IMG/VR virus record: IMGVR_UViG_3300042355_000871
Coordinates: 1 to 57,828 of that record
Strand: one strand, 5' to 3'
Length of the DNA stretch: 57,828 bases
From: a virus
Taxonomy: Duplodnaviria; Caudoviricetes
The notes under the pieces were generated by a model. The model saw only the letters and a program-made list of their open reading frames with translations. It was not told where the DNA came from and ran no database searches. Position 1 is the first letter of the stretch. Each line of letters starts with the position of its first letter. Shown in pieces: positions 8,277 to 30,363 of this stretch. Position numbers and translations under genes: made by a program.

Positions 8277-8450
8277 ATGGTTGCTCTAGGCGCGATGCTG
8301 TTGGCGTTCGCTGCGATTGTTGGTGCAGGTTTCAGCCTGTTTGCGGGAGGCGCATGGGGCTGGGTCGCCCTCGCGCTGTTCCTGGCGTCTATGGTTTTGG
8401 AGGGCGTTGGTTTCGCCTTGGCCGGGATGGAGGAAGCGGCGGAGGAGTAG
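8277..8450 (+). CDS. Small two-TM membrane protein, antisense (not in ORF track)
   Basis: AGGAG SD, ATG 8277; MVALGAMLLAFAAIVGAGFSLFAGGAWGWVALALFLASMVLEGVGFALAGMEEAAEE*, 57 aa. Confidence 0.55.
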   Translation: MVALGAMLLAFAAIVGAGFSLFAGGAWGWVALALFLASMVLEGVGFALAGMEEAAEE

Positions 8451-11400
8451 TCGGCTTTTTCCGCGGCGACAGCTTTGGAGGCGGCTTCTTCTGGTTGGCG
8501 AAATAGTCGCGCAGGATTGCAAGTTCTTCCTCTGCCTTCGGGACGTTCGCGCGCTTGCTTGCATACTTCGACGTCATGACGCCGATGCCGGTTCCGATAC
8601 CAGCGCCGATGCCAAGCATCATGAGCCCCTTGGCCTGAGCATACTGGTCTTCAAGCTCCTGCACGCGAGCGTAGTTTTCTTCGCTCTTATCGTTCTTGAG
8701 ATTTTCGTAAGCTGTATTCAGCTTTTCCTTGATCATCTCTGCGTTCTGGCCGGCAAGCACTGCCTCGGTCACCGCGCTGCCGCCAATAAGTGCATCCATC
8801 GCCCCGACTTTGCGGCCAATGAACTTGTCAGGGAACAGACCAGATGGAGGCATTACGTCCTTGAGCGGGCGGGCAATCCACGTACCGTCACGCCTCGTCT
8901 CAAAGGGAACCTTGGTCTTCGATCCGCCACGCTGCCAGAACTCGTTGACGTTGGTTGCGCGCTTCCTGATCTCGGCCCGATCCTGCACAGTTTTCGGAGG
9001 AGATATCGGCGCGTTGTTCAGCAGCGCATCGGCCTTCTTGATGGCGTTCTTTGCTGTGAACTTGGAGACGGTCGTTCCGCCAACGCGGAACAGCTTCGCA
9101 CCAGTGGCGCCGGCGATACCACCAAGCAACGGAGCGTAGTCACGGAAGGCCAGTTGCTCGTCAGTCGGTCGCGTGCGCTCAAAAGCAGCGTCTGCCTTAA
9201 GCTTGTCGCGCTCGCCTTCCAGCGTGGCAAGACGCTCGCGAGCCGTCTTCAGGCTTGCGTTGAGTTCGTCCTTGCGGCCACGAATAGCCGCCTTGGTGAT
9301 GTCGCCAAGCGTGCCATCAATGCCAGTCGGGCCAAGGTCGAAGCCTTCGCTGTCAAGCTGCGCCTGGATTTCCTTGTTCGTGCCGTCCGAGAAAATCTTG
9401 AGCGCGCCTTCAAAGTCTGCGATCTGTCCAAGCTCACGTTCAATGAGCATGTCATTGTCGGCAATCTTCTGAGCCGTCTCAGGCGTCTGAGGGACAGCCT
9501 CTCCAGCCATCCCGCCTGCGATAGCGCCGATCGCTCCACCGGCCACGGTACGGCCAATGCCAGATGTGGGGGAACGCCCCATAACTCCCTGCGGCTTGGG
9601 GCTTGAAGCAGAAAGGCGGGTTCCGCCGCCGACACCGAACATGCCTGCCTGTTCAGGGCGCCTGCGCGTTACCGGGACGGCAGTTGTGGGTGGACCTTTG
9701 ACTGGAGCACGCCCGCTTTTGAGGGCGGGTTTAGGCTTTGTGTCGCGACGGTTAACCTTCTCAAGGAAGGCCGCATGTCCGTCTTCTACTTTTTGGGCGA
9801 GGGCTTGGAACTGCTTCCGCGCATCGGCGAGACTATCACGACGGGCTCGAGCGGTATCCCAAGCTTTTCGAGCTGCGCCCGAGTAGCCAGCCGGTGCCGA
9901 TCTTCTGGCAAGATCTCGCTGTGCTGTACTTTTGGATATCCCGGCTGCTTTGGCGAAGTCATCGGTGATCCTTTCAGAAATGGCCTCAATTCGGCCAGCG
10001 TAGTCACCGCCCTCAGTATAGACCGATTTGTAATCGTGCGTGAAGATTGTGGGTGAGCCGTACTTATCCGCCCCAATAGCCCCGTTGAAGGCAGCGTCCA
10101 GTTGCTTCAGGGAGATGCCGCGCGGCATCTCTCCGTCGAAGTTAGGGTTAATGTCGAACTGGTAGCCGTTCGGGTAGCGGTTGTAGCTGAACGTGTGGCC
10201 CTCGGCATTCAGGGCCTTTGACAATGCGCGAAGGTCGGCAGGGCTCATGCGCTCGACCGTTGGCACGAACATTGACAGGCCGCGAATATAGCCCTCGCGA
10301 ACGGCCTCGCCAGCGTCTGCGCCAACCGCAAGCACTTGCGACACAGCCATTGCGGCCTGGCGAAGATCCTCGCCCGCGACAGCGTTGAAGTCCGCGATTT
10401 CGCTGTCCGTCAATCCTTTTAGCGGGATACGAATGTTAGGCGACAGATCGCCCTCAAACGAACCGCCAACGTCGAGCGGGTTTTCCTGCGTCGGGTGGTC
10501 GATGCGCGTGATGTCTTCGGTCTTGTTCATGCGACCAGTAATGGCCTTGGTCAGTTTCTCCCACGGCTGATCTCCTCTAGCGCTCTCGTAGAGCCCGCTT
10601 AGAATCGGCTTCAAATACTCCCGCTGGGTGAGTTCATCGCCCTCCGCCACAGCGCGGTCAAAGCGCTCACGCGCGGCCTTCCCGACCGGCGTGAGCTTCG
10701 TGCCAAACTCAATCGTGGCCTTGGGCGCTGCCCGCCACGGCCCTGCTGTGCGACGCAAGGCATCAGCAAAACCTGGATGCATTAGCGCTTCACGAGTGAT
10801 CTTTTGACCATCAATGCCGGGGATACCGGCGTTGTTCAGCTTGTTGATGATCCCGTCCCAAACCTGATGGTAGGCGTCTCCGGTGGCTGCACCGCTGGTT
10901 TGCGAGCGGAGGTGAACCCACGCCGGCGCCTGAAAGTTCCAGCTCTGAAGATTAAACGGCGGAGCATTCGCCATTTGCGGGTTTGCCGCCTTCATTGCCT
11001 CGGTGATCTGGCCGCTGTGGCGCTCGTTGTACAGGTCGCGCAGCTTGTTGAAATAGATCGCCATCGGCTCGTGAAGCGACTGGTTCGACGACATGACGGT
11101 GTCGTCGATGCCGAACATCTTGCCGACCCACACGTCGTTGACGCTGATCGGGAACCTTGTCGGAACGCCGCCGGTCAGGGCGAGCGTGTCCGAGAAGTGT
11201 CCTGTCTTGTTGCCCGGTAGAGCAGACGTTCCGAGGTCTTTGCGCGTAAGGGCCTGACTGACGGCTGATGGTTGCGTCAGATCAACATCGATAGGCTTGC
11301 CCTGCATGTTGCGCGAGATGGCCGCGAGCGTGCGCTCAAGATTCTCGTCTGGTTTTGCGCGAGCCGACGTGGCACCGACAACGTCCATCGAGTGAATAAA

Positions 11401-14400
11401 CTCTTTGGCCGTGAGGTCGGGGAGATTGTTCCCGAATGCCTCGCCCGATAGTTCGTACCAGAGCATGTCGCGATACGGCAGGCGCATCGCAGCATCCCAC
11501 TGCTCGGCAGGGAATGTCGGCACAACGCCATGCTTGCTTGCCGCATTCTTTGCGGCCTGCGAACTGGCCTCGACCGACTGGCGCCACAGATCCGCCAGTT
11601 CGTCGTCCGTGACATCGAAGCCGGGGCCCTTCGCCGCAAGAAACTCTGGCGAGAGGTCTGTCCAGTTTCCGCCGCCCGGAGCGCCAGGCGTATACGTGCC
11701 GCCAACAACTCGCTCGGCTTCTGGCACGATGACATTCAAGCGCTCCGCTGTGGCGGCGCCGCTGACGCGCGTATCTGCGCGGGCAGCGGCAATTGCCGCC
11801 TGAGTTGGGGTCGGCAGAGATGGTGCTATTGGTTTGCCGCGCTGAATGATTTCAGACAGCGGCCTGTTTCCCGGCTCATACTTTGCTCCCTGCGGAGCTT
11901 TGGGACGGCCTGCAATCGATCCCTGATCCGCCCCACGCACCGGAGGCGGCTTGACGCGCCCAGCACCACGCATGGAGTTGGCGAGGCGAGGACCGTACTT
12001 CCCACCGAGAGCCAGACCCATGCCGCCTAGCGCGCCAGCCTGCGGATCTTCCTGGTTGGCGAACGAGCCGCCGACTGAGCCGAAGCCAGCTAGGGCTACA
12101 TCCTGCTTGAGATTGTCGGCGATGCCGCTTGCGCGAGGCCCACTCACACCAGCTAGAAGCTTGGAGCTTTGTGTTTCGGAGGGGTCGAACTTGGCGAACT
12201 TGCCTCGGATGTTGGAGGGGTCGAAGATAATAAAGCTATCGCCGTCGCCTTCATGGGCATTTCGATAAACAATACTGTCGTAGCCCTTGTCTTGAATGGC
12301 CTTCTTGATGTCGCCCGCAGTAATATCCCACGCTGGTTTGTTGATTTCAATTGGATCTGGCAAGGTCGCTAGCTGATAGCGGAGAGAACCAACCGACCAG
12401 TTGCCGGGGTCTTGAAGGCGGAGCGGATTGCGAGCGCGAGCATACACAGGAAGAACGGCTGCGCCTTCGTGAAACTCTTCGCCAAGTCGTTTAGCTACGC
12501 CAGTAGTTTTGACGATGTTATTCGCCTGCGCTACATTTCCGAGATGGACCCCAAGGGGCTCATCACCTGATCGCGACAGGTTCGCGTTGAACTCATCGAA
12601 ATCTGCGCGCGTCCCATGATACAGCGGCGTATCGACATCAAACCCCTGCTCTCTCGCTCTCTGCATTCGAGAGGGCTCATCCATAGGAAGGGACTTCCCT
12701 CCGAAGCCGTTCTGCGCGGGACGATTGGCGTTGGCTTCTTTGATCTTGCTGACGAGCGTGTTGATGCCAACGCGCTTGCCGTCCAAGAGGAAGACCTTCC
12801 TGTCCTCGCCCTGAACGCCATTGCGCCGGCTCACCTCAAACTGGACCGATACTTTGCCAGCGGCGGTGTCCAGCGTGTCCGTCTCATTCAGGCGCCCAAG
12901 CTGATCAATCTCTGCTTGGGCTGGATCGGCGCGACGACCTCCGAAGCCCATCCTCACTGGCGGTGGCCTTGAAGCGCCAGAAGCGGGAGGCGGGGTCATG
13001 GGCGTGGAGCCCCTCGCGAGACGGTTGCCGAGAACGCCGCCGCCGATGCCGCCGATGCCTGCGCCAAACAGCGCGTTCATGAGCTGCTGGTTCTCGTCCT
13101 CCGCAGGAGCCATCGCCCCAAGGACGCCGCCAGCGACGATGCCAGTGCCGGTCGCAGACGCCGACGATGTCGTGCCGGGCGGGTTGCCTCTGGGGCCGCG
13201 CGTGCGCCCCGGAGACGGAGGCGGTGCAGCAGCCGCAGCAGGTTGAGCGGGAGGGATCAGGCCCTTCTCAGCCATGCGCGCTTCAACGCGGCGGATGACC
13301 TCATTCAGATTGCCCTCGGTCATCGGCTTGCCAATGAGCGGGATCAGCGCGCGGTTCACTTCCTCATCGTAGACGCCAGGATAGCGGAGACGCTGGTAGA
13401 TGTCCTTCGCCGTGCGTGCGATCGGCTTGACCGCCACATCGTTCACAAGGCCCGGCAGTGAGAACTGATTGCCAGAGGTTTCGACACGGTCCAGAACGCG
13501 CGTGATGGCGTCCTCGCCTTCCATGCCAGCGTCACGGATTGCCGCCTGACGCATGGCGGTGTCAGACCCACCCGCAACGCGACGGCCCCACTCACGGTTT
13601 GCGCCGAGCCTGCGGATAGTCTCCTCGAACGTGTCAGCAGCCTTCTGGCTACCAAGCGCCGTCGCCATGTTCTTGAGCGCCTTGTCCTTCAGGAGCTTCG
13701 TCAGCGCGCTCTGGTTGTTGGTCTCGATCATATCCTCGATGTTGCGGGCAACACCCATCGCAAGGGCTTCGACCTCGCCCGCAGTCCAAGGCGATCCGTT
13801 GCGGCCTTTGGACATGTCGCGCCGAAGTTCCCACGTTTTCTGGTTCAGCGCCTTAGTGCCGACCTCGAAGGCATCTTCCAGCCGTTTGACATCCTCAAAC
13901 ACACCAAGCGCGTTGCCATACTCTCCGCCAGTGGCCTGGCTGACGCTGTCGGCAAAGTTGCGCTTCGTGCCGCCAACAATGCGGGCCGTGTCCGAACCGA
14001 ATCCGGCGTCCGCGATGACATCGTCAAAGGCGCGCTTCGTGTAGTCCAGCGCCATCGTGGTCGGAATGGCTGTGCCGCGAACGGGATCGGCCATGTAGTC
14101 GTCGATCGATTTGACCGCGTCCCTAGCGCGGTTCCACTCCATCATTGACCGTTCATCAGCCCCGCGCGCCGCACGCGCCTGAAGATCAGCCGCTACTGAA
14201 GCGAGGTTGTTGCGAGCAGACTGGAGAGCCTTCTGCCCGCTCGGCGTGTTCAGAACCGGGACGATTTCGTTGGCGAAGACACGCGGATCGACAGGGGTGG
14301 CATAGGCATTGTCATAGGCTGGGGCCGCTTCAGTGCGGAGACGGGTTTCCAGCTCGTCCAGCGTGGCAACGGCGTTGTCTGCCTTCTGGCCCGTCGCGCG

Positions 14401-15948
14401 TGTTGCGCCGCGAGTAATGCGGGGAGACAGCTTGTCAGCGTTCTGGTTCACAACGCCAATCAGCGCCTCTTGCAGCGGCCCCGGAGCAGCGCCGCCGGCC
14501 ATCTGGAGGCCACGCAGGTTCGCGCCTGACGAGTTGTCCGTCATCGCCGCAAGTTCGCCGGATGTCTCGTAGACGCCGCTGTCGCCACGACGGGCAAGCC
14601 TCGCCTGGACTTTGCGGATGTCTTCTACCGTCACGCCGTCCGCTTCCATCTTCTTCATGAAGATGTCGTCGGCGCGCTGTTCTGCACGGGAGCGGGCTGG
14701 AACGGGCTGCGGTGCGCTTGCCGTGACCACTGGTGCGTTTGGCGGTGTCGGGGGCACAGGCTGGGCCGCGACGGTTTGCGGCTGTGTGGGGGCTTGCTGT
14801 GCGGTTTGCGTTGCAGCAACGGCAGAAGCCACGGGAGGCATCTGCCGGGATGGTTGGCGCAGGTTAACGCCACCAGCATTGGTAGGCGTTGTGGGAGCAT
14901 CAAGCGCCTTAAGGGCGCGCGGGACGGCGCGAGCAGCTTCAATGCTAACGTAATTGAGCGGGTCAGCAGCGCCCTGCGTACCGGCCATGTTTCGGTCAGA
15001 CCCCGCAGGCGCTGCGCCTGCGCTCATTCCGTAGGCCAGAGCCGCGTTCTCACCAGTCTCAACGCCAACGCCACGAAGCGTGCGCGACATCCCCGGAACG
15101 GTCGCTAAACTCTCGCTGAGTGCTTTACCCCCTTTGAGGATCGGCGCTCCAAATCCGGTAAACACGGATGCAAGATTGCCCGTAACATCAGCAGCCATTT
15201 CGCCCGGTGTAGTGGCAGCGGGTATCGGAAGGCTGGGGAGAATATCGCCAACGGCCTGCTGGTTCTGGACGTAGCCGCCCTGCTGCGCAGCATCTGCGAC
15301 ACGCTGCGTGATATCGCCGTATTCGCCGCCAGCAAGCGCGCCCTGCATCGACGGGTCAAAACCAGCACCATAGGCATTGGCAGTGCTGAGGCCCAATTGG
15401 CCGAGCGTGTTGGCAACGCCAATGTTGGAGTTAACGAACGCACCAGTAGCGCGGCCCGCAAATCGATCCGGTCGCTCCTGGTTCAGTTCAAGCGGTCCAT
15501 CTGGCCCCGTGTTCTTGAACGGGATCGGGGATGCCGCGTTCATCAGCGCAAGTTCTTCGTTGTACTTGTTGACGCGCTGCGCTTCATCACGCTCTGGCTG
15601 CGTTGCCCTGATCTGTGCGGGCGACATGACGGGACCGCGAACAGGCGGGGGCTTCATCCGCGTCGGCTGGCCTGATGTCAGCGTGCGAGCGTCAGGACGC
15701 AGCGGGGACAGCATCGGATCGGTCTTGGGCTTGCGAGCGTACATGTCATCGAACGCCTGACCGTCGCCCCACGGCGTTGCGTCGGGCTGGGACATGGGCG
15801 CCGGTTTTGCGATTGCCGCGGCAGGCTGAACAAGGCCGCGCTTCATCGCCTCTTCGTATGCCGCCTTCTTGTCGGGCGGAAGCAGGCCGCGCTTGTAGGC
15901 TTCCGCCAGCGCATCGGCCTTGCTAATCGAGGTATTTTCCGGAACCAT
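8389..15948 (-). CDS. Giant (2519 aa) internal virion/ejection polyvalent protein with ART-like, HhH-glycosylase-like and PG-binding domains
   Basis: Last of three ejection-position genes. LYHGT...GVHLG...LPVYAR.RNPL...GYDSIVY...FIIFDPSNIRGKFAKFDP; LWYE...ATSAR...GNKTGHF...SVNDVWV; EIQAQLDSEGFDLGPTGIDGTLGDITKAAI. Confidence 0.85.
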   Translation of the reverse strand: MVPENTSISKADALAEAYKRGLLPPDKKAAYEEAMKRGLVQPAAAIAKPAPMSQPDATPWGDGQAFDDMYARKPKTDPMLSPLRPDARTLTSGQPTRMKPPPVRGPVMSPAQIRATQPERDEAQRVNKYNEELALMNAASPIPFKNTGPDGPLELNQERPDRFAGRATGAFVNSNIGVANTLGQLGLSTANAYGAGFDPSMQGALAGGEYGDITQRVADAAQQGGYVQNQQAVGDILPSLPIPAATTPGEMAADVTGNLASVFTGFGAPILKGGKALSESLATVPGMSRTLRGVGVETGENAALAYGMSAGAAPAGSDRNMAGTQGAADPLNYVSIEAARAVPRALKALDAPTTPTNAGGVNLRQPSRQMPPVASAVAATQTAQQAPTQPQTVAAQPVPPTPPNAPVVTASAPQPVPARSRAEQRADDIFMKKMEADGVTVEDIRKVQARLARRGDSGVYETSGELAAMTDNSSGANLRGLQMAGGAAPGPLQEALIGVVNQNADKLSPRITRGATRATGQKADNAVATLDELETRLRTEAAPAYDNAYATPVDPRVFANEIVPVLNTPSGQKALQSARNNLASVAADLQARAARGADERSMMEWNRARDAVKSIDDYMADPVRGTAIPTTMALDYTKRAFDDVIADAGFGSDTARIVGGTKRNFADSVSQATGGEYGNALGVFEDVKRLEDAFEVGTKALNQKTWELRRDMSKGRNGSPWTAGEVEALAMGVARNIEDMIETNNQSALTKLLKDKALKNMATALGSQKAADTFEETIRRLGANREWGRRVAGGSDTAMRQAAIRDAGMEGEDAITRVLDRVETSGNQFSLPGLVNDVAVKPIARTAKDIYQRLRYPGVYDEEVNRALIPLIGKPMTEGNLNEVIRRVEARMAEKGLIPPAQPAAAAAPPPSPGRTRGPRGNPPGTTSSASATGTGIVAGGVLGAMAPAEDENQQLMNALFGAGIGGIGGGVLGNRLARGSTPMTPPPASGASRPPPVRMGFGGRRADPAQAEIDQLGRLNETDTLDTAAGKVSVQFEVSRRNGVQGEDRKVFLLDGKRVGINTLVSKIKEANANRPAQNGFGGKSLPMDEPSRMQRAREQGFDVDTPLYHGTRADFDEFNANLSRSGDEPLGVHLGNVAQANNIVKTTGVAKRLGEEFHEGAAVLPVYARARNPLRLQDPGNWSVGSLRYQLATLPDPIEINKPAWDITAGDIKKAIQDKGYDSIVYRNAHEGDGDSFIIFDPSNIRGKFAKFDPSETQSSKLLAGVSGPRASGIADNLKQDVALAGFGSVGGSFANQEDPQAGALGGMGLALGGKYGPRLANSMRGAGRVKPPPVRGADQGSIAGRPKAPQGAKYEPGNRPLSEIIQRGKPIAPSLPTPTQAAIAAARADTRVSGAATAERLNVIVPEAERVVGGTYTPGAPGGGNWTDLSPEFLAAKGPGFDVTDDELADLWRQSVEASSQAAKNAASKHGVVPTFPAEQWDAAMRLPYRDMLWYELSGEAFGNNLPDLTAKEFIHSMDVVGATSARAKPDENLERTLAAISRNMQGKPIDVDLTQPSAVSQALTRKDLGTSALPGNKTGHFSDTLALTGGVPTRFPISVNDVWVGKMFGIDDTVMSSNQSLHEPMAIYFNKLRDLYNERHSGQITEAMKAANPQMANAPPFNLQSWNFQAPAWVHLRSQTSGAATGDAYHQVWDGIINKLNNAGIPGIDGQKITREALMHPGFADALRRTAGPWRAAPKATIEFGTKLTPVGKAARERFDRAVAEGDELTQREYLKPILSGLYESARGDQPWEKLTKAITGRMNKTEDITRIDHPTQENPLDVGGSFEGDLSPNIRIPLKGLTDSEIADFNAVAGEDLRQAAMAVSQVLAVGADAGEAVREGYIRGLSMFVPTVERMSPADLRALSKALNAEGHTFSYNRYPNGYQFDINPNFDGEMPRGISLKQLDAAFNGAIGADKYGSPTIFTHDYKSVYTEGGDYAGRIEAISERITDDFAKAAGISKSTAQRDLARRSAPAGYSGAARKAWDTARARRDSLADARKQFQALAQKVEDGHAAFLEKVNRRDTKPKPALKSGRAPVKGPPTTAVPVTRRRPEQAGMFGVGGGTRLSASSPKPQGVMGRSPTSGIGRTVAGGAIGAIAGGMAGEAVPQTPETAQKIADNDMLIERELGQIADFEGALKIFSDGTNKEIQAQLDSEGFDLGPTGIDGTLGDITKAAIRGRKDELNASLKTARERLATLEGERDKLKADAAFERTRPTDEQLAFRDYAPLLGGIAGATGAKLFRVGGTTVSKFTAKNAIKKADALLNNAPISPPKTVQDRAEIRKRATNVNEFWQRGGSKTKVPFETRRDGTWIARPLKDVMPPSGLFPDKFIGRKVGAMDALIGGSAVTEAVLAGQNAEMIKEKLNTAYENLKNDKSEENYARVQELEDQYAQAKGLMMLGIGAGIGTGIGVMTSKYASKRANVPKAEEELAILRDYFANQKKPPPKLSPRKKPTTPPPLPPSRPRRNQRPPKP

Positions 15949-26428: not shown

Positions 26429-26919
26429 GAGATGATCGAGACGCGGTCAGCCGTATATGGTCGGTTCAGTTCAAAGTCAGCAACGCCAGAGCTGGCCACC
26501 GTCGTGCTTGCGCCGAGGGCGCCCCAGACATAGTCACCGGCCACAGACGCATCATCCACCGATCCGGCAGTGCCGGTGATGTAGACACGCCCGTTGTCCG
26601 CGAACGAGGTCAGGCACGAGCCAATGGCCTTGCCGCTGATCTGGAACCAGCCCCAGTACGAGGCCGTCAGGGTTGCCATAGCGACAGCGCAAGAGCCGAT
26701 GGCGTTGGCGGCAAGCCGCGTCACGCTTCCATCGTCCGTGTTGAGCGTCACCCAGTTGCGGATGGCGCACGATGCGACACCCTTCATGTAGACGAACTCG
26801 CCAGCGCCATACGTCTCGTCCTTGCACAAGACGATGGTTCCGGTGTCGTGTTTCTTCGTAGCAGATTTCTCGGCAATCGCCTGGTTGAGCAGGAAGTTGC
26901 CAGCAGGTGTCCAAGTCAT
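26425..26919 (-). CDS. Putative capsid decoration/cement protein
   Basis: Directly after the capsid gene; AGGA SD then ATG 26919; G.GEFVY.KG...WGWFQISG. Confidence 0.7.
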   Translation of the reverse strand: MTWTPAGNFLLNQAIAEKSATKKHDTGTIVLCKDETYGAGEFVYMKGVASCAIRNWVTLNTDDGSVTRLAANAIGSCAVAMATLTASYWGWFQISGKAIGSCLTSFADNGRVYITGTAGSVDDASVAGDYVWGALGASTTVASSGVADFELNRPYTADRVSIIS

Positions 26920-26957
26920 TGGAGTTTTCCTATTGGATTGTTGTGAAGGCGACCAAG

Positions 26958-26993
26958 TCCAGCGGCTCACCCATCTAAGGACAAGCCGCTGGA
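26958..26993 (-). promoter_or_regulatory. Stem-loop after the capsid gene (no U-tract; attenuator or RNA-stability element)
   Basis: TCCAGCGGCT...AGCCGCTGGA inverted repeat. Confidence 0.45.
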
Positions 26994-27019
26994 AGGGTCA
27001 GTTGCTCAGGTCAGGTCGA

Positions 27020-27831
27020 TCAGGGGCTGGAATCGTACAGCTTGGCAGTGTGGACGGGGTTCTTGAGAACCAGTTCGCCCATGAAGCCAATGTGCTGGAC
27101 CACAGCGTCCTGGTTGATCGGCATCTGCTTGCCACCGAACCGCTCGAAGTTGCGGTCCTTGTTGTAGTAGAAATGCAGATCCTTCATCGAGATGAAGTAG
27201 CTCGCGTCGTCCGGCATGGCCGTACCGACACCGCCTTCGAGAACCACGTCGATCGACTTGCCAGCCCCATAATATTTCATGGCGCTGAAACCGCCTTTTC
27301 CAAGGCCGTTCTCGTCGTTGATGCGCTGGATGGCCGAGAGGGCCGCATCATACGCCTGATAGTGCTGCGTCGAGCAGGTGATCAGGTCGGGGCCGCGTTG
27401 ACCGCGCGAGCGTGCGAACACGACGTGGTTGAACAGCGGACGCACCGTGGTCGAAGTGACCGCAGTAATCGCCGTGCCGGCAACCGTGATCGAGTTGGCG
27501 TTGTAGGTCGTCGTCCGCCATTGGGTGTTGCTTACCCGGCTGATGCCGCCATACGTGCCGGTCGAGGTCGTGGTCGGAATGGCAAGCTGGAGCCCGCCGA
27601 TCTGGTTGTCCGAAGAGCCAGCAGAGTGGATGTCCTCGCAGAAGCGATCCTGCAATTCCATCTCGGCAGCTTCCATGTGCATCTCGAACACGTTTTCGAG
27701 TTGCCCTTCTCCGCTGTTCTGAAGGATTTCCTGACCCGTCAGCATGATCGAGACCGCGCCCAATTTCGGCGTGAACTCGGCATCGTTGAACAGATCGACC
27801 GGCGACGGGGCAAGAAATTGAGCACCATTGT
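27020..27831 (-). CDS. Major capsid protein, exon 2
   Basis: Frame is open upstream of the track ORF: (Y)NGAQFLAPSPVDLFNDAEFTPKLGAVSIMLTGQE...TGTYGGISR...PINQDA. Confidence 0.88.
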
Positions 27832-28012
27832 CAGTTTTGTTATCGCGAAGCGTTTAAGCCGCGCTTCTGCATCTTCCGCTCGTTGATGCAGCTCAGACTA
27901 TATCATCACCGTTGTTCCGGTGTCGGGCGCTCGTGGGCGGGTTATTCTTTCGTCACCGCCTAGTCGTTGCACCTTCCGCAGCCCTGACCTCTTGCGAGGC
28001 TACATCTGCGGC

Positions 28013-28041
28013 TTGGCTCAGGATTATCAATGCAGTACAAT
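28013..28041 (+). promoter_or_regulatory. Putative antisense promoter for the intron HNH gene, inside the ribozyme core
   Basis: TTGGCT(28013-18)-N17-TACAAT(28036-41). Confidence 0.55.
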
Positions 28042-28114
28042 AAGATTGGTTCTTGGTACTGCGAAGCGTTGGTTTTCCCTGAGTTCACCCGATTATTCGA
28101 TTCGGAGTTTTCCG

Positions 28115-28864
28115 TTGCCAAAGGTTCTGAAGACGTGTGTTCGGTGTGGCGTCGAGTTTTCGATCTTTCCGTCCCGAGAGCGCTGGCAAGCAGCGAGAGG
28201 CGTCGAGATCAAGTTTTGCTCCCGCAAATGTACCGCCGAAGCAAGGTCTGCTGGAGAGATCGGATCGCGCAAGCGAGAGGGAGGCGAACTCCCATGCTCG
28301 ACCTGCGGAACGCCGGTCTATCTGAAGCAGTACAAGCTCAAGCGCGACACCCTGCATTTCTGTTCGCAGGGGTGCAGGATCAAGGCGATTTCCGAGAACC
28401 GAATTGATCGCAAGTTCGATCAGATTGCCGAGAAGAAGAGGACCGGCGCGTGGTTTTCCTGCTGCATATGCAGCAAGAAGAAGTACCAGCGCATCTCCTA
28501 CATTAACCGGAACGTGAACAAGACTTGCGGCAGTCGATCCTGCTTTTCGGCCTATCTGCGAAGCCTCTGGAGCCTGCCTCCGTGCTCTGATGAGGAGCGC
28601 CGGAAATCAGGCAGTAGGGGTCCGCGACCGAAGAGGGTATCCAATTTCACCGCCAAGCAGCGGCTAAACTGGCTGGAAGACGCCTGCGCTCGGTGCGGAA
28701 CATCCGACAACCTGGCGCTAGACCACATTCTTGCAGTCAGTTGCGGTGGCAAGTCGGAGCGAGAGAACGCTCAAACCCTTTGTCAGCCATGCAACAACTG
28801 GAAGATGAAACACATCGATAAGCCCTTGGCGCGGGCTTGGAACAAACTCCAAAAAGCGGCTTAG
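28115..28864 (+). CDS. Intron-encoded HNH homing endonuclease with three N-terminal CxxC...(F)CSxxC Zn modules, antisense to the intron
   Basis: GGAG SD then TTG 28115 (MPKVLKTCVRCG); CARCG...LALDHI...GG....NAQTLCQPCN. Confidence 0.88.
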   Translation: MPKVLKTCVRCGVEFSIFPSRERWQAARGVEIKFCSRKCTAEARSAGEIGSRKREGGELPCSTCGTPVYLKQYKLKRDTLHFCSQGCRIKAISENRIDRKFDQIAEKKRTGAWFSCCICSKKKYQRISYINRNVNKTCGSRSCFSAYLRSLWSLPPCSDEERRKSGSRGPRPKRVSNFTAKQRLNWLEDACARCGTSDNLALDHILAVSCGGKSERENAQTLCQPCNNWKMKHIDKPLARAWNKLQKAA

Positions 28865-28886
28865 TGGATGGTGGATTCCACGGTTA

Positions 28887-29085
28887 ACCGAACATACGAG
28901 CCCGATTCGTTGTAGAGCTGACGGATGCGGATCGTCGGGCCGCTGTAGGCTTTCCATCCGCCCTTGCTCTTCATGGTGTAGAGGATGGCGTTGGCGTTGG
29001 AGACAAGGTCTTGATATCCGGGGGACCGGAACTCAAGGGCGAGCGAGAACGCTTCCCCGAGTTTTTCTACGCTTGATAGTGGCAC
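28887..29085 (-). CDS. Major capsid protein, exon 1
   Basis: AAGGA SD and GTG start after the scaffold; ...YQDLVSNANAIL...YSGPTIR...LYNESGSYVR. Confidence 0.88.
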
Positions 29086-29103
29086 GACAAATGGTCCTTG
29101 TGA

Positions 29104-30363
29104 TTAGGCGATGCCTAGCTTGCTGAACGCAGCCGTGATGGCATCGCGTGCTGATGAGGGGACTGGCCGTCTCACGGCAGGGTTTGAGCCTGAACCGGGT
29201 GCGCCAGTAATGGATGCTTGACCGCGTCGGGTTTGAGCCACGAGGTCGGGCGCCGGAATATCCGGCGCGGGGGGCGAGAGCGACGGAGCGGGGTTGAGCC
29301 GCTCGACCTTCTCGTAAGCTTTCTGCAACCGGGCCATTGGTTCAAGGTCCGGTGCAAATCTCGGGTTGTGCAGTTCTGTCTCGATGTCTCTTGCAAGCTC
29401 ATCAAAGCGGGGATGAGCCTTCGAGAACTCTGCAACCTGGTTCTGGATGGAAGATGAGCGCTGCTCCATTTCTTCCTGCTGACGCCGCTGCTGGGCCGTC
29501 TCATAGGCCGCAAGGCGTCTCTCTGTTTCTTCCAGCCTGCGCTGGAGGTCGGTGTTCTCGGTGTCGAAGGCTGTGTCCGGTTCAACCTCGTCCACGATCT
29601 GCTTGGCGAACTGGTAGAGGCTCTCATAGCCCTGGTTCTTGACCAGCCGCTCGATGCCCGCGGGCATGTTCGTGGCAAGCAGGCGATCGAACTCGACGTA
29701 GTTCTTCAGCGTCTCCTTGAGAGGAGCCCTGTAGGTCTCCTGCGAGAGCCGGTCATACTCGGCAAGCTCGTTCCAGCGCTCAGCGCCTTCCCGATGCTTG
29801 ACCAGCCCGGCGCTGAGTTCGTCGTGCATCCTGACGACTTCAGCACGCAGAGGCTCAGGGGCTGCATCCCATGTCGATTTGGCCTCGGCAGACATGCGCT
29901 GCGGGGGCTGATACCTGCTCGGTGCGGTCGGTGTCGGCGTTGCAGGCGGTGTTGCTACAGTTGCTGCATCTGCGACAGGTGGCGCTGCCTTTGCAGCCTC
30001 CATGTTCGCACGGCGCGTCTCCCAGCCCTTGGCCGTGCGCTCGGATGCTTCAGATCGCGCCGTTGCATCACGCGCCTGCTTCTCGGCTGCACTCTTGGCA
30101 TTGGCGACCAGCTTCTCGTCTGCACCGGGTCCATCACGCAGGACAGCCGCTGCACGCTCCGTTTCGGTCGGCGGGCGAGCCTCGACCGTGTTGAAGGCGC
30201 TGCGGATGGCGTCGCTGATCGATGGCGACTTGTCAGCCTTGGCCGGCGCGGATGACTTGCCCTCGGATGCAGCCGGGGCTGTCGAAGGTCCGCTGCTTGT
30301 GGAAGGTGCAGATGCAGGTTCGCTGCCGCCCGTTTGAGGGGCGCTAGAAAGGTCGTCGGCCAT
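29104..30363 (-). CDS. Capsid scaffolding protein
   Basis: Low-complexity N-terminus, long charged helices, FSKAHPRFDEL, LQKAYEK; immediately before the capsid gene. Confidence 0.8.
   Translation of the reverse strand: MADDLSSAPQTGGSEPASAPSTSSGPSTAPAASEGKSSAPAKADKSPSISDAIRSAFNTVEARPPTETERAAAVLRDGPGADEKLVANAKSAAEKQARDATARSEASERTAKGWETRRANMEAAKAAPPVADAATVATPPATPTPTAPSRYQPPQRMSAEAKSTWDAAPEPLRAEVVRMHDELSAGLVKHREGAERWNELAEYDRLSQETYRAPLKETLKNYVEFDRLLATNMPAGIERLVKNQGYESLYQFAKQIVDEVEPDTAFDTENTDLQRRLEETERRLAAYETAQQRRQQEEMEQRSSSIQNQVAEFSKAHPRFDELARDIETELHNPRFAPDLEPMARLQKAYEKVERLNPAPSLSPPAPDIPAPDLVAQTRRGQASITGAPGSGSNPAVRRPVPSSARDAITAAFSKLGIA

Follow-up and report, generated by a model that had tools for sequence, protein, structure and literature searches.

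We analyzed a 57,828-bp virus record (IMGVR_UViG_3300042355_000871), which comes from a freshwater phage, is ~92% complete by estimate, and is called the window below whenever its whole length is meant. Its minus strand holds the genes from ~1.6 to 47 kilobases (kb), among them a major capsid gene that is very probably interrupted by a mobile group I intron, with the gene for an HNH homing endonuclease inside the intron on the opposite strand. The main features of the locus are listed here.

28887–29085, minus strand: capsid exon 1, with a GTG start codon at 29085, 66 codons, and the first base (T) of a split tyrosine codon
27832–28886, minus strand: predicted group I intron of 1055 nucleotides (nt), which starts UAACCG and ends ...AAAACUG, with its terminal G at 27832
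27020–27831, minus strand: capsid exon 2, with the last two bases of the tyrosine codon, 269 codons, and a TGA stop codon
28115–28864, plus strand: putative HNH homing-endonuclease gene, with a TTG start codon, 249 codons, and a TAG stop codon, antisense to the intron and wholly inside it

A preliminary description of this DNA had placed the break in the capsid open reading frame (ORF) at GTT CGG T (28887) and its resumption at 27831, and both are present in the sequence. At the 5′ junction, GTTCGGT occupies 28893–28887 and the intron runs from 28886 (TAACCG); at the 3′ junction, ...AAAACTG extends up to 27832 and ACAATGGT follows from 27831. Exon 1 ends in U (28887), and the split codon is T/AC (Tyr-67). 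The minus-strand ORF that begins at 29085 continues to 28861, reading ...GSYVR and then LTVESTIH before a stop 8 codons beyond the end of exon 1. When viral contigs were scanned with exon 2, 22 loci were recovered, one of which (L026) consists of the C-terminal half only, leaving 21. In 20 of these 21 related contigs the allele is uninterrupted and the exons abut, separated by exactly the one split codon, and every one of the 20 intron-less alleles reads ...CGN T/AY... across the predicted join; exon 2 of three of them (L005–L007) is 97% identical to that of the window. The boundaries are fixed to the nucleotide by these 20 intron-less alleles together with the in-frame join. The one remaining locus, L008, is interrupted at the same site by an intron of 1058 nt, again with an HNH gene on the opposite strand (70% protein identity). 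Given that the exons abut at 20 of 21 loci, the interrupted layout lies far beyond what chance would produce.

Joining the exons in silico (199 + 812 nt) gave 1011 nt in frame, encoding 336 amino acids (aa) with ...SYVRYNGAQFL... across the junction. This result reproduces the join that had been proposed (YVRYNGAQFL, 336 aa), and the spliced product is collinear over its whole length with capsid proteins that three deposited phages encode without interruption (343, 336, and 336 aa). Exon 2 matches the phrog_9953 'major head protein' profile (expectation value (E) 1.3e-61) over positions 70–326 of 329, and its closest deposited relatives are the capsid protein of Rhizobium phage RHph_I3_18 (43.7%), those of the Brucella phage Tb/Pr type (34%), and that of Microcystis phage Mwe-JY13. 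Exon 1 is 60–89% identical to the N-terminal 66 residues of the 21 related loci; alone it gave no match to the phrog_9953 profile, and the equivalent exon 1 of three related loci (L048, L049, and L051) matches profile positions 4–71. The genes flanking the capsid gene belong to the head module (phrog_25516 and phrog_29386). Both exons are under purifying selection, with a ratio of nonsynonymous to synonymous substitution rates (dN/dS) of 0.16 against L008 and about 0.09 against L005. No second capsid gene was found in the ~92% complete record. Because this capsid gene is the single one in the record and exon 1 supplies the N-terminal 66 residues conserved in uninterrupted homologues, it is reasonable to suppose that all capsid protein would depend on splicing.

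The DNA between the exons matches the group I intron model RF00028 (Intron_gpI) at 28139–27867 on the minus strand, over the full model (positions 1–253), with 53.0 bits and E 1.1e-10; the gathering score of this model is 50 bits. This match, from the type of covariance-model search (Infernal) that the preliminary description had suggested as a check, is the only Rfam match in the window, also when the record was searched as a genome. The ribozyme core, previously put at about 27832–28095 for paired regions P3 to P9, was mapped to 28092–27832, in agreement with that estimate. We then compared nine complete introns of 851–1058 nt (the window, L008, L032, L046, L047, L048, L049, L051, and L072). 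In all nine, U precedes the 5′ splice site and G is the last base of the intron, and the joins restore ...Y-x-R-Y-x-G-Y-(D/Q)-x-L.... The exon 1 frame of all nine also meets a stop 0–8 codons past the 5′ splice site, which would keep ribosomes out of the ribozyme. The predicted elements of the window's intron are as follows.

28857–28890, minus strand: P1, in which exon bases CGGU (28890–28887) pair with the guide GCCG (28860–28857), with U28887·G28857 at the splice site
28844–28853, minus strand: 5′ strand of the P2 proximal helix, UUUGGAGUUU, inside the last HNH codons of the other strand
28101–28110, minus strand: 3′ strand of the P2 proximal helix, AAACUCCGAA, whose plus-strand complement contains GGAG (28104–28107)
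27832–28092, minus strand: catalytic core, with P3, P4, P5, P6/6a/6b, P7 (GACUA...UAGUC), a P7.1-type hairpin, P8, P9, P9.1, and the terminal G

The P1 helix that had been anticipated, CGGU/GCCG with a U-G pair, is present at 28890–28887/28860–28857 and co-varies among the nine introns. Its general form is an exon NGGU with a guide GCCN; the U·G pair is kept in all nine, and the exon base at position −4 and its guide partner are C-G in three introns, A-U in one, and G-C in five. The loop L1 is 26 nt long and holds an inner hairpin (GUGGA...UCCAC), the arms of which are kept in L008 with a different loop. An alternative guide, ACCGAAC (28145–28139, beside the start of the Rfam match), could form 7 base pairs with GUUCGGU at the end of the exon. 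We rejected it because it would place A rather than G opposite the U of the splice site, because this stretch is the antisense of the HNH codons C-V-R-C, and because the pairing is lost in L008 (5 base pairs) and in L046 (no complement).

The strands that follow the guide and precede P3 vary between introns and are complementary within each one, as in the pairs UUUGGAGUUU/AAACUCCGAA of the window, GAGAGAA/UUCUCUC of L046, GGUUAAU/AUUAACC of L048, and GAGGUUGU/ACAACCUC of L072. Calculated with RNAduplex, cognate P2 strands had a mean pairing energy of −28.7 kcal/mol (n = 9) compared to −17.3 ± 4.2 kcal/mol for non-cognate combinations (n = 70). The cognate partner ranked first in both row and column for five of the nine introns, first in the column and second in the row for L072, and second in both for the other three; for the window and L008, which are close relatives, the better partner was each other's strand. 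P2 is thus predicted to be a long-range helix that closes a loop of ~730 nt, with the HNH gene antisense in the terminal loop, and the pairing reaches into the first and last HNH codons. The HNH ORF had earlier been set between P1 and P3 in reverse orientation; the opposite strand stands, with a Pfam HNH_5 match, and the location can now be narrowed to the P2 terminal loop.

RNAalifold, applied to the segments from P3 to the 3′ end of the nine introns, recovered P3, P4, P5, P6/6a/6b, a hairpin between P7 and P3′, P8, P9, and P9.1. In 36 of the 55 predicted core pairs, at least one sequence is changed on both sides and still paired. P7 (GACUA/UAGUC) is invariant and hence carries no covariation information; as a pseudoknot, it falls outside the predicted structure. 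The hairpin between P7 and P3′ lies at what we take to be the position of P7.1/P7.2 in introns of subgroup IA.

The protein encoded on the opposite strand has three Cys4 modules followed by a C-terminal HNH nuclease motif. It matches Pfam HNH_5 (E 3.4e-9, 36.9 bits, cut-off 27.5) and HNH (28.5 bits, cut-off 21.4); in profile comparisons its C-terminus matches the HNH nuclease of PDB 4H9D (E 3.9e-9) and also Cas9 HNH domains, and its N-terminal repeats weakly match tandem zinc-finger arrays. Homologues (n = 41) are mostly about 245 aa long. The columns that are invariant across 22 homologues are all retained in the window copy (C8, C11, C35, C39, C61, C64, C83, C87, C191, C194, D203, H204, N218, C223, C226, and N227), and dN/dS against L008 is 0.16, with dS near saturation. 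Judged by the conserved residues and dN/dS, the gene appears to be intact and functional, and its product is predicted to cleave DNA. The earlier reading of the capsid gene as interrupted by a group I intron that carries an HNH gene in antisense is thus supported by the Rfam match, the intron-less alleles, the terminal U and G, covariation in P1, P2, and the core, and the conserved HNH protein.

The ORF originally listed for this gene (27920–28864, 314 aa) is over-extended. The 22 homologues share the N-terminus 'MPK..TC..CG', 16 of the 22 start at that column, the window codon there is TTG 28115, and the start codon at the aligned position in L008 is GTG, with GGAG kept. A start at 28124 was ruled out, as the codon is GTT. 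Public calls (P0001, 314 aa; P0002; P0016; P0018) carry the HNH ORF on upstream into sequence antisense to the ribozyme core (window 27920–28114), and a 'PEFTR' peptide in P0002, P0016, and P0018, an antisense reading of P3/P4, could mark antisense-HNH group I introns in protein databases. The GGAG at 28104–28107 lies 7 nt upstream of TTG 28115 and is the complement of the P2 3′ strand; at the other end of the gene, the TAG stop codon (28862–28864) lies within L1, and the guide and the P2 5′ strand are inside the last HNH codons. There is no plus-strand gene upstream of the HNH gene for >25 kb, so read-through from a neighbour is unlikely and, from this gene layout, the HNH gene probably has its own promoter. 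One suggestive candidate was found.

28013–28041, plus strand: candidate HNH promoter, TTGGCT-17-TACAAT, weak, 74 nt upstream of the TTG and antisense to P4′/P5/P6

A scan with a sigma-70-like consensus found 3 sites in the 2.4-kb region compared to 0.9 ± 0.9 in shuffled sequences, and the best promoter-like site among the nine introns is TTGACT-17-TATAGT in L032.

To place this intron among its relatives, we used both the ribozyme and the HNH protein. An exact 20-nt word from the ribozyme core occurs in 17 metagenome contigs. Three of these (L030, L043, and L032) have capsid exons and an antisense HNH gene, and in L031 an antisense HNH gene accompanies an exon 2 that resembles those of Brucella phages. 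The remaining contigs carry a related ribozyme (62–92 bits) without an HNH homologue, and these HNH-less ribozymes interrupt or abut phrog_1328 capsid genes (L029:5637-5898, L034:2779-3068, and L038:453-685), a phrog_212 capsid gene (L039:262-506), and a DnaB-like helicase gene (L033:2342-2623). A single ribozyme lineage has spread over unrelated phage genes. The locus of one of the HNH-less ribozymes also holds, at L038:1794-2333 on the plus strand and in the sense orientation, an HNH-annotated ORF with a LAGLIDADG-like 'LAGIVEGEG' motif.

A search of viral contigs with the single HNH protein confirmed no relatives, and an alignment-based profile scan did find them: 26 viral and 12 genomic loci, with 11 substantial matches, ten of them new once L045, which is the contig of L008, is set aside. 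At eight of these ten loci (L046–L052 and L072, the last a Sinorhizobium genome contig), a group I match lies on the opposite strand and abuts the 5′ end of the HNH gene; L050 repeats the sequence of L032, and L051 and L052 are alike, so the independent cases number fewer than eight. Of the other two, L053 ends at a contig edge and L071 has no group I match. L071:2501-3217, on a Rhodobacterales genome contig, encodes a full-length HNH homologue (48% identity) with no group I match at E ≤ 1e-3 and no capsid-like flanks, close to a serine-recombinase-like ORF of the opposite strand; this homologue may be a free-standing endonuclease copy or something different. Among 50,697 deposited phage genomes, no match was found to the HNH protein by tblastn (E ≤ 1e-8) or to the 267-nt ribozyme core by blastn (E ≤ 1e-3), and blastn of the whole 2.3-kb region against deposited phages returned a single 57-nt capsid match.

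All informative host genes of this HNH family are phrog_9953 capsid genes, in which exon 1 covers profile positions 4–71 and exon 2 begins at 69–72, and the insertions fall at two sites. Site A is at the first Tyr of Y-x-R-Y-x-G-Y, with P1 exon bases C/A-GGU (the window, L008, L030, L043, L046, and L047); site B is at the second Tyr, 9 nt downstream, with GGGU (L031, L032, L048, L049, L051/L052, and L072). The site-A HNH proteins are ~249 aa long, and the site-B enzymes align from residue ~40–53 on, without the first Cys4 module. These capsid loci often hold extra endonuclease genes in the sense orientation, such as phrog_374 HNH genes at L048:1258-2037 and L051:594-1367 (both minus strand) and a GIY-YIG-type homing endonuclease gene at L046:3425-3958 (minus strand). 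The capsid frame of L048 stops again after ...EEIQNSGW, which suggests a second interruption.

The intron is patchy among relatives and looks mobile. On a maximum-likelihood capsid tree of 30 rows, in which L047 sits on a long branch and L048 is 31% filled, the intron must have changed state at least seven times. The sister of the window is L005, which has no intron (95% identical protein, support 95/88), followed by L008 (intron) and L009 (none), and the hosts of L046 (site A) and L051 (site B) are sisters (support 100/98). Over the whole spliced coding sequence, identity of the window is 89% with L005 and 79% with L008. Immediately 5′ of the insertion site, over 50 nt, it falls to 74% with L005 and rises to 88% with intron-bearing L008. 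This flanking-exon pattern is co-conversion-like, of the kind that homing would be expected to leave, or that selection for P1 pairing could produce. We also mapped contigs of one metatranscriptome run (X6, whose sample has a DNA run too) and three DNA runs (X5, X3, and X4) on 26900–29200. The intron-bearing form was present in DNA runs of other studies, as one 20-kb contig in X5 and as contigs crossing both splice sites in X3.

On this evidence, we consider it very likely that the window carries a mobile group I intron in its single major capsid gene, with an antisense HNH gene in the P2 loop, and we infer both splicing and homing. Late minus-strand transcription would produce a capsid pre-mRNA, on which ribosomes translating exon 1 would halt 8 codons into the intron. 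P1 would pair the exon end CGGU with the guide GCCG, P2 would close the ~730-nt loop that contains the antisense endonuclease gene, and P3 to P9.1 would form the core. Guanosine-initiated cleavage after U28887 and ligation after G27832 would then restore TAC (Tyr-67) and the 336-aa capsid protein. The endonuclease would be made from the opposite strand by its own signals (TTG 28115, GGAG, and possibly the promoter antisense to P4–P6) and would cut the intron-less capsid alleles of co-infecting relatives near the Y-x-R-Y-x-G-Y site, its presumed target. Repair off the intron-bearing genome would copy the intron together with some tens of bases of flanking exon.

Several observations weigh against this account. 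No 28887/27831 joint was found among the contigs of the one RNA library (X6), an assembly that drops minority forms, and one X6 contig crosses the 5′ splice site unspliced. The Rfam score of the window is just 3 bits over the gathering threshold, and that of the L008 copy (47.8 bits) is under it. P1 is short, at 4 base pairs, and the co-conversion signal comes from a single 50-nt bin. For endonuclease expression, promoter-like sites with at least 9 of 12 matches occur at the corresponding antisense position in just five of the nine introns, and Shine-Dalgarno-like tetramers occur in four of the nine. The X6 contigs span both exons and most of the intron, and the unspliced one could be precursor RNA or DNA carry-over; because contigs drop rare forms, the X6 result bears on splicing neither way. 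Contigs of the DNA runs X5, X3, and X4 likewise contained no joint over 26900–29200. RF00028 scores vary across the family: four related introns (L072, L050, L047, and L046) score 51.9–77.3 bits, over the threshold, and six of the ten related capsid-intron matches (L008, L043, L048, L049, L051, and L052) fall below it at 35.5–48.1 bits, so that annotation with Rfam defaults would miss them. The low scores are probably caused by the long (~730-nt) P2 insertion, which disturbs the 5′ part of the model.

The X6 contigs also break at ~17–30 nt inside exon 2 by the 3′ splice site (27677–27815), where there is a short fold-back contig at 27677–27706, and again inside the HNH gene (28346–28516). The DNA contig of the same sample is continuous, and these breaks may be an assembly artefact. 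Elsewhere in the window, the structural block downstream of the capsid gene includes one 2519-codon ORF (8389–15948, minus strand).

Two other explanations of the locus suppose that no splicing takes place. The intron might be a decayed relic that no longer splices; the capsid gene would then be a pseudogene, the phage defective or satellite-dependent, and the HNH gene the sole active part. The missing joint among RNA-library contigs would fit a relic, as would the marginal Rfam score (53 bits compared to a gathering score of 50), and the record, a metagenomic contig, could come from a non-viable phage. However, the low score is probably explained by the ~730-nt P2 insertion, for which the model has no counterpart. 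Of the 55 core pairs, 36 are kept through double changes in nine introns in which P1 and P2 also co-vary, which argues for continuing selection on the RNA fold. The two exons, moreover, evolve under purifying selection, with dN/dS at 0.16 in the comparison with L008 and about 0.09 in that with L005, and the interrupted arrangement recurs in DNA runs of several separate studies and in many divergent phages, leaving a relic very unlikely. Split genes that arise from endonuclease insertions are known in phages, and an endonuclease cassette could in principle have divided the capsid gene into two separately translated polypeptides that co-assemble without any splicing; an ORF with a TTG at 27763 is present inside exon 2 and would fit such a split. 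We find this barely credible, as the break falls inside a codon (T/AC), a stop closes the exon 1 frame 8 codons beyond the junction, no start codon is available where exon 2 begins, translation from TTG 27763 would lose 22 conserved residues, and the intervening DNA fits the group I model, with covariation.

Two further proposals concern how the HNH gene came to face backward. The gene could be a later, independent invader of an endonuclease-less intron ('collaborative homing'), its orientation accidental and functionless. The ribozyme can evidently exist alone, given that the same 20-nt core occurs without an HNH homologue in L029, L034, L038, L039, and L033, and phage HNH genes often move alone, as described for the free-standing, oppositely oriented segD by the T4 capsid gene (PMC2988022). 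Yet the HNH gene is in the P2 loop and antisense at every locus that can be judged (the window, L008, L030, L043, L031, L032, and eight of the ten further loci), and this arrangement covers two sub-lineages with different insertion sites and HNH identity down to 31%. Such breadth implies that any invasion was ancient and that the HNH gene and ribozyme have since moved as one unit. A later, independent invasion with an accidental orientation is very unlikely, and the proposal concerns origin more than the present-day mechanism, for which it is not a true rival. Conversely, the backward orientation could be an evolved and conserved design, in which the cassette fills the P2 loop exactly, its end codons and ribosome-binding site double as P2 strands, and its promoter is the antisense of the conserved ribozyme core. 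We regard this idea as doubtful. If it were true, the nuclease would be made early from host-type signals and be insulated from massive late capsid transcription and translation, and the complementary RNAs could later interact and so adjust either splicing or the amount of nuclease. With insertion sites separated by 9 nt and enzymes that differ by one Cys4 module, the two sub-lineages would then also offer a natural system for the study of retargeting by modular finger-like arrays.

Mobile introns that interrupt a phage capsid gene and carry their endonuclease gene in antisense are a kind of element already known, with an experimentally supported precedent in mycobacteriophage LittleE. Splicing of the LittleE capsid intron was shown by reverse-transcription PCR and N-terminal protein sequencing, and the intron has a bottom-strand endonuclease ORF (Pope et al., 2013, PMC3706429); the same authors cite a capsid-gene intron in lactococcal phage Tuc2009. 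The preliminary description had set the present locus against phage introns known mostly in DNA-metabolism genes with sense-strand endonucleases, and in light of LittleE it overstated the novelty. As described by Pope et al., 2013, the LittleE intron resembles that of the window in interrupting the major capsid gene, in having an exon 1 that ends in U and an intron that ends in G, in its presumed mobility, and in an endonuclease frame that is opposite, 'transcribed in the leftwards direction' (PMC3706429). It differs in its length (820 bp), in its host, an actinobacteriophage siphovirus, and in its type, left open in that account as 'most likely a group I'; its ORF is LAGLIDADG-like in the text and HNH in a figure legend (PMC3706429). 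The window's intron, by comparison, is 1055 nt long, has a clear Rfam match, encodes a Cys4-repeat HNH protein, and lies in a different capsid family, phrog_9953; the comparison is with the published description of LittleE.

Other well-known systems share parts of this arrangement. The introns of T4 td (I-TevI), the SPO1 DNA polymerase gene (I-HmuI), and the Pf-WMP3 DNA polymerase gene (I-PfoP3I) are self-splicing group I introns in essential phage genes, as treated in PMC2988022 and PMC3428280. They have an endonuclease ORF looped out from a peripheral helix and home with co-conversion of flanking exon, and I-HmuI and I-PfoP3I are HNH enzymes like that of the window; unlike it, their endonuclease genes are co-oriented with the host gene, and the hosts are genes of nucleotide or DNA metabolism rather than capsid genes. 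According to PMC2988022, segD, which is free-standing and lies beside the capsid gene, is the one homing endonuclease gene of T4 that does not share the orientation of its neighbours. Nuclear group I introns of ribosomal DNA (rDNA; e.g. L2066), as described in PMC9548176, are also mobile, can carry an antisense endonuclease gene, and raise the same question of its expression. They differ in being eukaryotic and nucleolar, in interrupting rRNA genes, and in having His-Cys box enzymes, spliceosomal introns in the endonuclease gene, and RNA polymerase II signals (PMC9548176), whereas the window represents a bacterial virus with a protein-coding host gene and an HNH enzyme. In jumbo phage PhiPA3, gp210 is an intron endonuclease, presented in the context of competition between jumbo phages (PMC11620839). 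A review of bacterial group I introns (PMC3984707) and a 2025 intron and endonuclease database paper (PMC11835236) leave endonuclease orientation and capsid genes unmentioned. Our literature search turned up neither this family nor any phage capsid intron with an HNH gene lying antisense in its P2, with the limit that more capsid introns or endonuclease orientations might be listed in the supplementary tables of the intron database and of the Jug-phage preprint. What appears to be new here, as read from the sequences compared, is an HNH gene in the P2 loop, with a co-varying closing helix that overlaps the gene ends and the ribosome-binding site, together with two putative homing sites 9 nt apart and related ribozymes in other capsid families.

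If the capsid gene is spliced as we propose, the phage's most abundant virion protein would need efficient self-excision of a 1-kb ribozyme, which would place RNA catalysis on the critical path of particle production. The case is not isolated, since other uncultured phages, of freshwater and soil type, share the layout, as does a contig of a Sinorhizobium genome. Such introns are probably under-annotated, because no deposited phage gave a match, over half of the related introns score below the Rfam threshold, and gene callers over-extend the HNH ORF; as a result, metagenomic capsid genes may be miscalled as truncated or split. The intron family would also provide a comparative system for antisense homing-endonuclease expression and its compatibility with splicing.

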